64,000 bases of DNA from an uncultured delta proteobacterium (GTDB taxonomy: Bacteria > Myxococcota_A > UBA9160 > SZUA-336). The stretch spans positions 448,001 to 512,000 of the forward strand of contig CAVPHD010000003.1 of assembly GCA_963704165.1 (NCBI GenBank). The letters run 5' to 3'. Every line of letters starts with the position of its first letter. The stretch's first letter is position 1. Both the position numbers and the translations under genes were made by a program. The notes below the pieces were generated by a model. It saw only the letters and a program-made list of their open reading frames with translations. It made no database searches and had not been told where the DNA came from. This document shows positions 39,538-42,500 of this stretch, one piece after another.

Positions 39538-42500
39538 GGCTGGCCCGTCATCGAGCGCCAGGCGATCCGCGCGCCGAACGCAGCGGTGCCCACCACGCGA
39601 TAGGCCTGACCGTAGGGCCCCAACTTGAACGGGTCGCTCCATGCGATCCGAATCCACGTGCGATCGGCTGCGTTGTCACAGCCCCCAGCGCACAATCCGT
39701 CGTGCTCGAATCCCGCCTCGTCGAGCACACTCTCGAGCCTCTCATTGCTCGTCTGTCCACGACCCCAGAACACTCCATTCTGCAGCCCGTAGCGGGGCAC
39801 CAGAGTTCCTCTGATCAGGCGCCCAGCCGCCTCACCCATACCGGACACGTCGCCGTTCACGGATCGATCGATCAGCATTCCGAGGCTCATGAAAGGATGG
39901 ATGACGAGCTGCGAGTAGATCGCCAGTGTAGCCGCCTGGAGATCCGTCAGAATGACTTTCCCCAAGCTGGCGACGACTCGCGGCAGCTTCCGAATGCCGC
40001 CGGGCGCCGGGACACGGGTGACTCCGACCGCGGGCCCGGGCGCGAAGCCGAAGATGAACGGAGTTTCGGCGCTCGGCTCGGGCGTCGTCTGCAGCACGCC
40101 GGACTGAAGCGTCGCCGTGCTCCAAGCCCCGTAGCTCACGCCGTTCCAGATCAACATTCCCGTCGGATCGGTGGCGCTCGTCGGCCGGTTCTGCACGTAG
40201 GAGTACGGATTCAGACCGGGTGCGTCGAAGTCCTGCACCACTTCATCCGGCGAGATGAACCGGTTCCACCTCGCGTCGTAGAAGCGCGCTCCGTAGTCGT
40301 AGAGCCCGCCGGCCTCGTCGTCCTGCGGCTGACCGGTGAATCGGTGTGCGACCGAATAGGCTCCCGCGTGCGCGATCGACTCGCCGAACGGCGCGTAGTC
40401 GCGGGTCTCGACGACGATACCGTCACGATTCACCGACGCTCGGATCGCGCCGAGGTGGTCGGTGAGATGCGCGAGGATCGGCTCCGCGTGGCGTCCGAAT
40501 CTTCCGGGGCCGGATGTCGGTCCCGGTGTGACGGGTGTCGTCGCCAGGCTCGCGACGCGCACGCCGCCGATCGAGAAGTGCTTGTTCGCGCGCTGCGCGC
40601 CGACGTCGTACTCGAAGTCGCCACCGACCGAGACGATCGAGGTCGCAGCACCGCTCGGTCCGGTCGACGTCAGCGTCAGGTCGCCGAAGACGTCGTAGCC
40701 GTAGGTCGAGCGCCGATGGCGGTGGAGCTTGCCCTGCGTGTTCCAGATCAACGTGTCGCGACCGTATCCCGAGCCGAAGTCGATCTGCGCGACCTCGCCG
40801 CCGAGCGTGGAGCCGATCGCCTCCCACTGCTCGCCCGCCTCGACGAACTCCGTCAGGACGCGCGGCTTGCTCGCGTGGAAGTAGCCCCAGGTGCGGTGGT
40901 CACCGCCGAAGCTCTCGGGACGACTGCTCACCTGCCGGCGCAGATTCCCGAGCGCGTCGTAGCGGTACGTCCAGGTGACGGGCTCTGCGGCGTCGCGCGC
41001 CTTCTCCCAGGAGCCGGTCGCGGTCACGAGGCGAGAGAGCCCGTCGTACCCATAGCTGCGATTCACGGGCTCGGCGCCGATCACACCGCTCTGTGTGACC
41101 AGGCGGCCGAGGCCGTCGAAGACGAGGTCGAGATCGATCGGCGCGCTCGACGGCAGATTCGAAGGCGTCGTCGCCCGGCAACGCTGCAGGTCGCCCACCC
41201 CGTGCCAGAGCGCGGTCAGGACCGCGACGAAGTCGTAGGGATCGCAGGATCCGCCACCGTCGACGTCGCAGAGATCCTCGCGAACGAGCGGGTCGTCGCC
41301 AAAGTCGTGCATCAGGATCGCGAAGCCATCCGCGAGCGTGACTCTTCCGCTTCCGTCGACGTCGCCGCACTGGCAGCCGTCCCCGATTCCGTCGGGGCCA
41401 CTGGCGTCGCCGAGCCCGCCGCGATCGAGCTGATCCGGATCGTAGGCGTTGGGGCAGACGTCGCTCGACGTCGCGACCCGATCCGCGTCCGGGTCGTCCG
41501 AGAGCAGGTTGCCCGGCGTCGCGCGGACACGAGAGAGCCGCGCGCTCGTCGGATCGTAGCCGTAGGTCTGCACCGCGAGCGCCGCGCCGCCCGCGCGCTG
41601 GCCGATCTCGAGCGACGTGATGCGACCGAGCGCGTCGTAGTCGGCGTCGCGGACGACCACGCCCGTGAATGCCGGATTCGCGGGGTCGGCGCGGATCTCG
41701 CGCAGACGCACGCCATCGTAGGCGAACTCGAACGCGTCGCCGTCGGGGAAGACCCGGCGCTTCACGCGATCGAGCGCGTCGTACTCCCAGCTGGATTCGA
41801 ACTCGAGACCGTCCGTGCGCTGGACGACGGAGCTCCGGCGGCCGGCCTCGTCGTACCCGTACAGGTAGCTCGTCGACGAGGGCTCGGCGGCCATCACGCC
41901 GATCAGCTGTCCGAAGGACGAGAGCGACGCGTCGGTCCCGTAGACGAAGCTCGCGTTCGCGACGCCCATTCCAGCCGGAGAGAAGCTCTTCGCGCGGAGC
42001 CGCCCGAGCGGATCGTAGCTGCGCCGTTCGCTGCGGGCCTCGCTCGTCCCGGCGTTCTGAACCCGCGCGACGAGCCGTCCCGCGTCGTCGTGGTCGAAGC
42101 GCCAGATGCCCGAATCCGGGTCGTCGATCCGAACGCGTCGCCCGAGCGTGTCCCAGAAGATCTCGGTGACGTGGTCCTGCGCCGCGCAGGCCGGCCCCAT
42201 CTCGAGCGACGCGCAGAGCGACGGATCGTTCGCGATCGGATCTCGGACTTCGTAGAGCCGGTCGGCGGCGTCGTACTTCGCCGAGACGACGTGGGGATCG
42301 GACAGGGTCACGGCATCCGGATGGCTCGCGACCCGGACCCACCGTCCCAATCCGTCGCTCATGCGCTCCGTTCGCTCCACGCGATCGCCCGCGGACGGCG
42401 GTCCGAAGTACGTCTCCTCGATCGTCGTCCACGGCGCGTAGCTCCAAGCGTGTCGGGTGGTCGCATCCGGGTCGAGGACGAGCTTCGGCCGTCCCAGGGC

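Follow-up and report, generated by a model that had tools for sequence, protein, structure and literature searches.

A dockerin-like insert in the shell of an RHS polymorphic toxin and candidate surface-anchored cohesins in a Myxococcota-like genome

The RHS polymorphic toxin P0001 of a Myxococcota-like bacterium carries in the middle of its shell a 120-aa insert (residues 1562-1681; 41157..41516, minus strand) that joins a TSP3 repeat to a dockerin-like domain, and elsewhere in the same genome a PEP-CTERM protein is predicted to fold as a cohesin. Unless a contig or locus is named, positions refer to the window, which is the whole stretch of 64,000 nucleotides that was analysed. In our estimation there is about an even chance (a probability of roughly 0.5) that the insert docks the exported cocoon on surface-anchored proteins with a predicted cohesin fold, a reading for which we infer the steps of binding, localisation and toxicity alike. 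If true, this would represent cellulosome-style display or targeting of a toxin by cohesin-dockerin pairing in a Gram-negative bacterium. How RHS toxins that leave by Sec and have no T6SS tag stay at the surface or reach their target is largely open, and the insert is a small and separable candidate module for this role. Since candidate receptors are encoded in the same genome and there are natural relatives with and without the module, the question is reduced to a simple binding assay.

P0001 has 2221 aa and is encoded on the minus strand (39534..46199, as delimited by its open reading frame). It begins with a segment that resembles a signal peptide when judged by eye, followed by SpvB (residues 32-227), an FG-GAP propeller, TcdB_midN (716-855), the YD/RHS shell, a core end at DPTG and a tip of 207 aa, the Pfam families matched being SpvB, FG-GAP, TcdB_toxin_midN and RHS_repeat. 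The nearest solved shell is TcdB2-TccC3, with an E value of 5e-87 in the sequence profile comparison and a TMq of about 0.69 in the fold comparison, the latter made with a predicted AlphaFold structure of residues 901-2020 (pLDDT 87.9). In the main text of Zhang et al. 2012 (PMC3482391), the TcdB/TcaC polymorphic toxins are described as having a signal peptide, SpvB, an integrin-like propeller, RHS repeats and a variable tip, all of them shared by P0001, whereas dockerin or thrombospondin is mentioned 0 times in that main text and P0001 carries a dockerin-like domain and a TSP3 repeat. With SpvB, integrin-like propeller and RHS repeats, as well as the DPxG core end and variable tip, P0001 is, as judged from its sequence, a TcdB/TcaC-class RHS polymorphic toxin. 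Compared with the Tc toxins, it joins the B and C parts in one chain, and a scan of 40 ORFs of the window revealed no TcA gene. The named cluster members of its close homologues bear Deltaproteobacteria or Myxococcota labels, and the source genome is of a Myxococcota-like lineage. The genome also encodes another complete RHS protein, which differs in type from P0001 and lacks the module (G000:C9:22992-28697).

The variable C-terminal tip (39537..40157, minus strand), which differs among homologues, is a putative toxin of 207 aa. His-Asp is invariant in all five aligned tips, one of which shows a weak match to Phospholip_A2_4 (E 0.028), and the tip of P0001, for which a sequence search of the PDB gave no match, is possibly phospholipase A2-like. 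Overlapping the toxin stop by 4 bases there is an ORF for a putative immunity lipoprotein of 167 aa (39034..39537, minus strand), recognized by eye from its reading frame and lipobox-like start and with no match in Pfam. The orthologue of P0001 in genome G008 also has a similar ORF downstream of the toxin.

The bounds of the insert are the residues at which close homologues without it join their flanks directly, and in alignments it leaves a sharply bounded gap in P0012, L061, L062 and shells that are further removed. It lies in the turn of a beta-hairpin, placed by the AlphaFold model between shell strands 1555-1562 and 1688-1694. The TSP3 repeat (residues 1568-1609; 41373..41498, minus strand) is rich in Asp, contains Cys1582 and Cys1609 and is recognized by profile positions 3-44, which match thrombospondin/COMP TSP3 repeats; this part is modelled with a low pLDDT, about 46-72. 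It is followed by the dockerin-like domain, here called type A (residues 1611-1674; 41178..41369, minus strand), assigned from its loops, its helices and the profile match to solved dockerins. The domain has a calcium loop of 12 residues in duplicate, Asp1613-Asp1624 and Asp1645-Asp1656, and in the model a helix comes after each of the two acidic loops (1622-1632 and 1654-1666). Cys1611, 1644, 1652 and 1674 belong to this domain, giving six cysteines in the whole insert when the TSP3 pair is counted, and these would presumably pair in disulfides. The six cysteines and both loops are conserved across RHS inserts, with the exception of a degenerate second loop in G022. A preliminary description of this region had placed a TSP3 repeat, two dockerin-type loops and helices between YD repeats, and this arrangement is confirmed, the peptides quoted being located at residues 1569-1678 (window about 41166-41495).

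The same description took the domain for a dockerin and not a generic EF-hand. Searched alone in Pfam, the P0001 insert gives weak scores: it stays under the cut-off of Dockerin_1 (PF00404; E 0.12, 13.1 bits against 22.9), has no match to TSP_3 (PF02412) and matches EF-hand_6 weakly (E 0.006). The resemblance nevertheless exceeds what chance would give. Positions 45-104 of a profile of the 11 copies in the genome match solved dockerins (best E 5.5e-6), and a leave-one-out profile of the 10 other copies recovers the P0001 insert with an E value of 4.6e-16, while the full module profile gave 0 matches against reversed ORFs. Moreover, the Dockerin_1 cut-off is passed by the orthologous inserts of P0009 and P0011 (28.3 and 28.9 bits) and the TSP_3 cut-off by paralogous copies of the module. 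These comparisons support the view that the insert is dockerin-like rather than a generic EF-hand, and it is filed as dockerin-like because one typical dockerin recognition feature is missing.

A basic residue at recognition positions 17-18 is typical of type I dockerins, although not universal. At these loop positions in helix 1 all 20 free modules have it but none of the 12 RHS inserts does, and in helix 2 a basic residue is found in 18 of the 20 free modules (one row being mis-parsed) as compared with one of the 12 inserts. Because these basic residues have been lost, binding by the inserts is unlikely to involve the same face and the same mode as in the free modules. Where free modules have Arg, the inserts are enriched in Phe, Trp, Tyr and Met, which would suit hydrophobic helices that bind a ligand other than a cohesin, such as a receptor on the target, a membrane, a protein associated with exopolysaccharide or the shell of another copy. 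However, the helices of P0009 and of an insert-bearing fragment in G003 are alanine-rich instead of hydrophobic, and no candidate partner of this kind was found, so we consider such a ligand quite improbable.

The module is carried by nine close homologues of P0001, with 55-68% identity in the region. The search of 32 family genomes detected the shell in 13, and among the 14 RHS loci from this search the insert is present in four, plus one fragment. A quick tree of shells was built from 25 rows after removal of the insert columns, five loci being omitted (four duplicates of proteins already present and one partial). This survey of RHS proteins for the insertion found it in 11 of the 25 shells; three of the 14 without it are inside the insert-bearing clade, and its history on the tree comprises three changes, either a single gain with two losses or two gains with a single loss. 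On these alignments, the insert is clean, optional and dispensable.

One explanation for these data is that a mobile tag, widespread in this lineage, settled in a loop that tolerates it, ceased to bind cohesins and has been kept as an appendage stabilised by calcium and disulfides. The loss of the basic residues agrees with it, and so does the repeated absence of the insert in close relatives, as in P0012, which is 61% identical to P0001 over the aligned shell; the tag is also abundant, with up to 44 matches per genome, and the turn at the insertion site accommodates small insertions. However, the insert has been retained between shells that are only about 39-42% identical (G022), its second calcium loop is more canonical than that of free modules and an aromatic pair in helix 2 is present in nine of the 12 inserts. 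Moreover, dockerin-like modules occur at three sites in RHS proteins, namely mid-shell, at the N-terminus (L071) and directly before the core (C1 cassettes), and three separate acquisition sites therefore favour function over accident. We regard the inert tag as an unlikely explanation, although one with several observations on its side.

The insert is one of 11 full type A copies in the genome. The other ten are on unrelated proteins, in agreement with the earlier expectation that other secreted proteins are tagged too; seven of the ten are C-terminal and the remainder N-terminal or internal, and the bearers include subtilase, CotH, GDSL-like and metallopeptidase-like proteins. The type A profile matches 38 of 41 genomes, 25 of them strongly, and the weak matches may correspond to TSP3 alone. 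In a search of cluster representatives TSP3-repeat proteins predominated, and the counts from it were set aside. A few kb from the toxin, P0002 (1371 aa; 32152-36267), which has no Pfam family over about 1200 aa, ends in a TSP3 repeat and a dockerin-like module identified by profile comparison (32155..32643, minus strand). It had been described as similar to the insert; it is indeed related, but it belongs to a distinct type B, whose hhalign probability against type A (96.8%) comes in large part from TSP3. Type B has 7 matches in the genome and is present in 15 of the 41 genomes. Of two paralogues that share 68% identity over 789 aa, one has a type A tail and the other a type B tail, so that the two tails appear to act as exchangeable tags. 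The orthologue of P0002 in G008 holds the same position near the RHS gene.

Pfam detects no cohesin over the cut-off in the genome, the best match being a protein that also matches FAD_binding_4, and only one of the 32 family genomes has a cohesin over the cut-off. The reading that there is no cohesin partner, based on this near-blank result, was dropped after the fold of Coh1 was predicted. Coh1 (G000:C4:284001-284705) is one of 14 PEP-CTERM proteins found in the genome by a pattern search, and its gene is located between two type B genes. Its model has a pLDDT of 92.6, Foldseek returned cohesin entries in all rows listed, down to rank 43, and in a wide fold search (VIA-align) the top 18 were all cohesins (Z 12.0, rmsd 2.6, 120/131 aligned). 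Coh1 is thus predicted to have the cohesin beta-sandwich fold, as the scaffold search suggested by the preliminary description had anticipated, whereas the Pfam cohesin family (PF00963) has 0 matches in six Coh1 members; a cohesin search that is negative in Pfam is no evidence of orphan dockerins. Sequence searches of the PDB with Coh1, Coh2 (see below) and the type B module gave nothing useful.

The Coh1 gene is part of a cassette, on a different contig from the toxin, consisting of a type B-tagged gene, Coh1 and the Coh2 gene. This order is kept in 8 genomes, with only the upstream side in G003, and in 8 genomes Coh1 is flanked by type B genes on both sides. The third gene codes for the conserved domain Coh2 (G000:C4:284944-285411), which is present in a single copy and continues into a dockerin-like tail. 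Coh2 is found in 17 of 41 genomes, all of them among the 25 with strong type A matches and none among the other 16, counts that are not independent as the genomes are related, the cut-off for strong matches having been set post hoc. Coh2 is fused to PEP-CTERM in G037, G039 and G025, in the last of which a type A gene comes after it, and it shares an ORF with type A in G013. The Atlas look-alikes of a Coh2 homologue include clusters annotated as cohesins, under the naming bar; Coh2 had no match among PDB and Pfam cohesins, and its comparison by hhalign with Coh1 and with cohesins of the Pfam type did not reach significance. A cohesin fold is therefore only suggested for Coh2, and the protein is a probable adaptor. 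Three exosortase matches were found in the genome, and clusters combining cohesin and PEP-CTERM are present in the Atlas. Because Coh1 has a predicted cohesin fold and lies in a cassette with dockerin-tagged genes, a candidate surface scaffold does exist, as had been proposed. The proposal that the toxin is tethered to it is weakened by the loss of the basic helix residues from the insert and by the close relatives that are devoid of it. A Pfam-type cohesin of G013 was rejected as a general partner, since its homologues occur in only 2 of the 32 genomes. In that genome (G013:C60, L076), a Pfam-detectable cohesin with a PEP-CTERM tail adjoins a protein ending in a dockerin-like duplicated loop.

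In the docking reading, the toxin would be exported by Sec and its module would fold with the aid of disulfides and calcium. Coh1 would be anchored by exosortase, and the Coh2 protein would serve as an adaptor, with its type B tail bound to Coh1 and Coh2 taking type A modules; in other families Coh2 might be anchored directly via PEP-CTERM. The shell would cut its own tip at DPTG and keep it caged, while the module, facing outward, would bind a cohesin directly or via the adaptor, with its own, more hydrophobic specificity. The loaded cocoon would then be held at the cell surface for delivery on contact, and the downstream lipoprotein would protect the producer. If the insert were instead inside the cocoon, it could act as a calcium-sensitive plug or a chaperone for the tip; however, shells that carry the insert do not have shorter tips (176-238 aa) than shells that lack it (118-257 aa), and elsewhere the module is a terminal tag of unrelated proteins, which makes a lumenal position highly improbable.

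Docking itself must be weighed against several observations. Besides lacking the basic recognition residues of the free modules and being dispensable, as its absence in close relatives indicates, the P0001 insert falls under the Pfam dockerin threshold. The genome G008, which is 96% complete, has an insert-bearing RHS protein with no Coh2 match and only weak Coh1 matches, gene order ties Coh1 to type B and not to type A, and the cassette and the toxin are on different contigs. Taking these points together with the cassette, we lean slightly towards a two-tier, exosortase-anchored and Pfam-invisible cohesin scaffold, with a re-specified dockerin in the shell wall that would dock RHS cocoons on the own or a rival surface.

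Most homologues (P0004-P0015) have two hydrophobic segments directly before the RHS core (window about 40480-40530), the second of which resembles an internal signal peptide and could anchor or process the shell. These segments are absent in P0001 and P0008 and partly kept in P0003. This bears on the possibility that the module is used for aiming, that is, that it binds cohesins which related strains display on adjacent cells and brings the cocoon to them, with no self-tether. If the pre-core segment, which scores at least 1.5 on a 19-residue hydropathy window in eight of ten insert-bearing proteins, already anchors most homologues, a second self-tether would be redundant. The recognition helices of the inserts are unlike those of free modules and change from one orthologue to another, Coh1 exists in multiple, variable copies (21-67% identity) and the tips are polymorphic, as would also be expected for aiming. 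However, P0001 and P0008 keep the insert after the hydrophobic segment has gone, which a self-tether fits equally, and shells without the insert persist. Aiming with no self-tether seems to us rather unlikely, and docking on the surface scaffold is still preferred.

A combination of RHS and dockerin is already on record from cellulosome clostridia. According to the available text of PMC6780208, the scaffoldins ScaO and ScaP2 of Clostridium alkalicellulosi contain Rhs, the dockerin of ScaP2 binding cohesins, and that of PMC3413522 describes RhsA-bearing dockerin proteins in Acetivibrio cellulolyticus. As in P0001, dockerin and RHS repeats are in one chain in these systems, to which the tier of anchor and adaptor that we infer here may be compared. 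In the clostridial proteins, as presented there, the dockerin is a separate module ahead of the Rhs part and the hosts are Gram-positive cellulolytic bacteria, whereas the cysteine-rich domain of P0001 is linked to TSP3 and embedded in the shell, and the genome, which is Myxococcota-like, has PEP-CTERM anchors and Pfam-invisible cohesins. The preliminary description knew of no such delivery mode for RHS toxins. A literature search, mostly among openly accessible papers, found no passage on a dockerin inside an RHS shell, and no paper joining PEP-CTERM, cohesin and dockerin. The mid-shell dockerin-like insert is apparently unreported, in that we found no report of one.

Bacterial teneurin-like proteins (PMC13018210), also found in Myxococcota, are toxins with a YD shell and a signal peptide, for which surface anchors or adhesion domains are predicted, and their surface localisation rests, according to the main text of that paper, on bioinformatics alone. 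For anchoring they have N-terminal domains of the lipoprotein, S-layer or wall-binding kind, dockerin being mentioned 0 times in the same main text, and unlike them P0001 has a shell of the SpvB/TcB type. Dockerins outside cellulosomes are also known from the cohesin-dockerin pairs of ANME archaea (PMC9012536), from giant proteins of Omnitrophota that combine dockerin and TSP3 (bioRxiv 2023.11.21.568195) and from PT-TG toxins with cohesin or dockerin domains (PMC13483458), although the available texts of these sources contain no RHS-shell insert or PEP-CTERM cohesin partner that we could find.

Some further loci may be mentioned. A different RHS/TEN_YD-shell protein, with an N-terminal type A module, is encoded in G020 (L071:1142-7825). 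At G000:C1:687033-692671 (L024) there are three near-identical orphan RHS C-terminal cassettes, the longest of which has two hydrophobic segments and then a different dockerin-like domain and Asp-rich repeats directly before the RHS core. Further copies of Coh1, seemingly frameshifted, are present at G000:C3:746-1282 (L085) and in G005:C1 (L131), and the frameshifts may be sequencing errors. Finally, G003 has an inverted, insert-bearing fragment at a contig end (L060:7529-8062), with arms 85-90% identical to the adjoining RHS gene, which is without the insert. This fragment, on which the idea of an invertible switch rests, is either a possible silent cassette or an assembly artefact.
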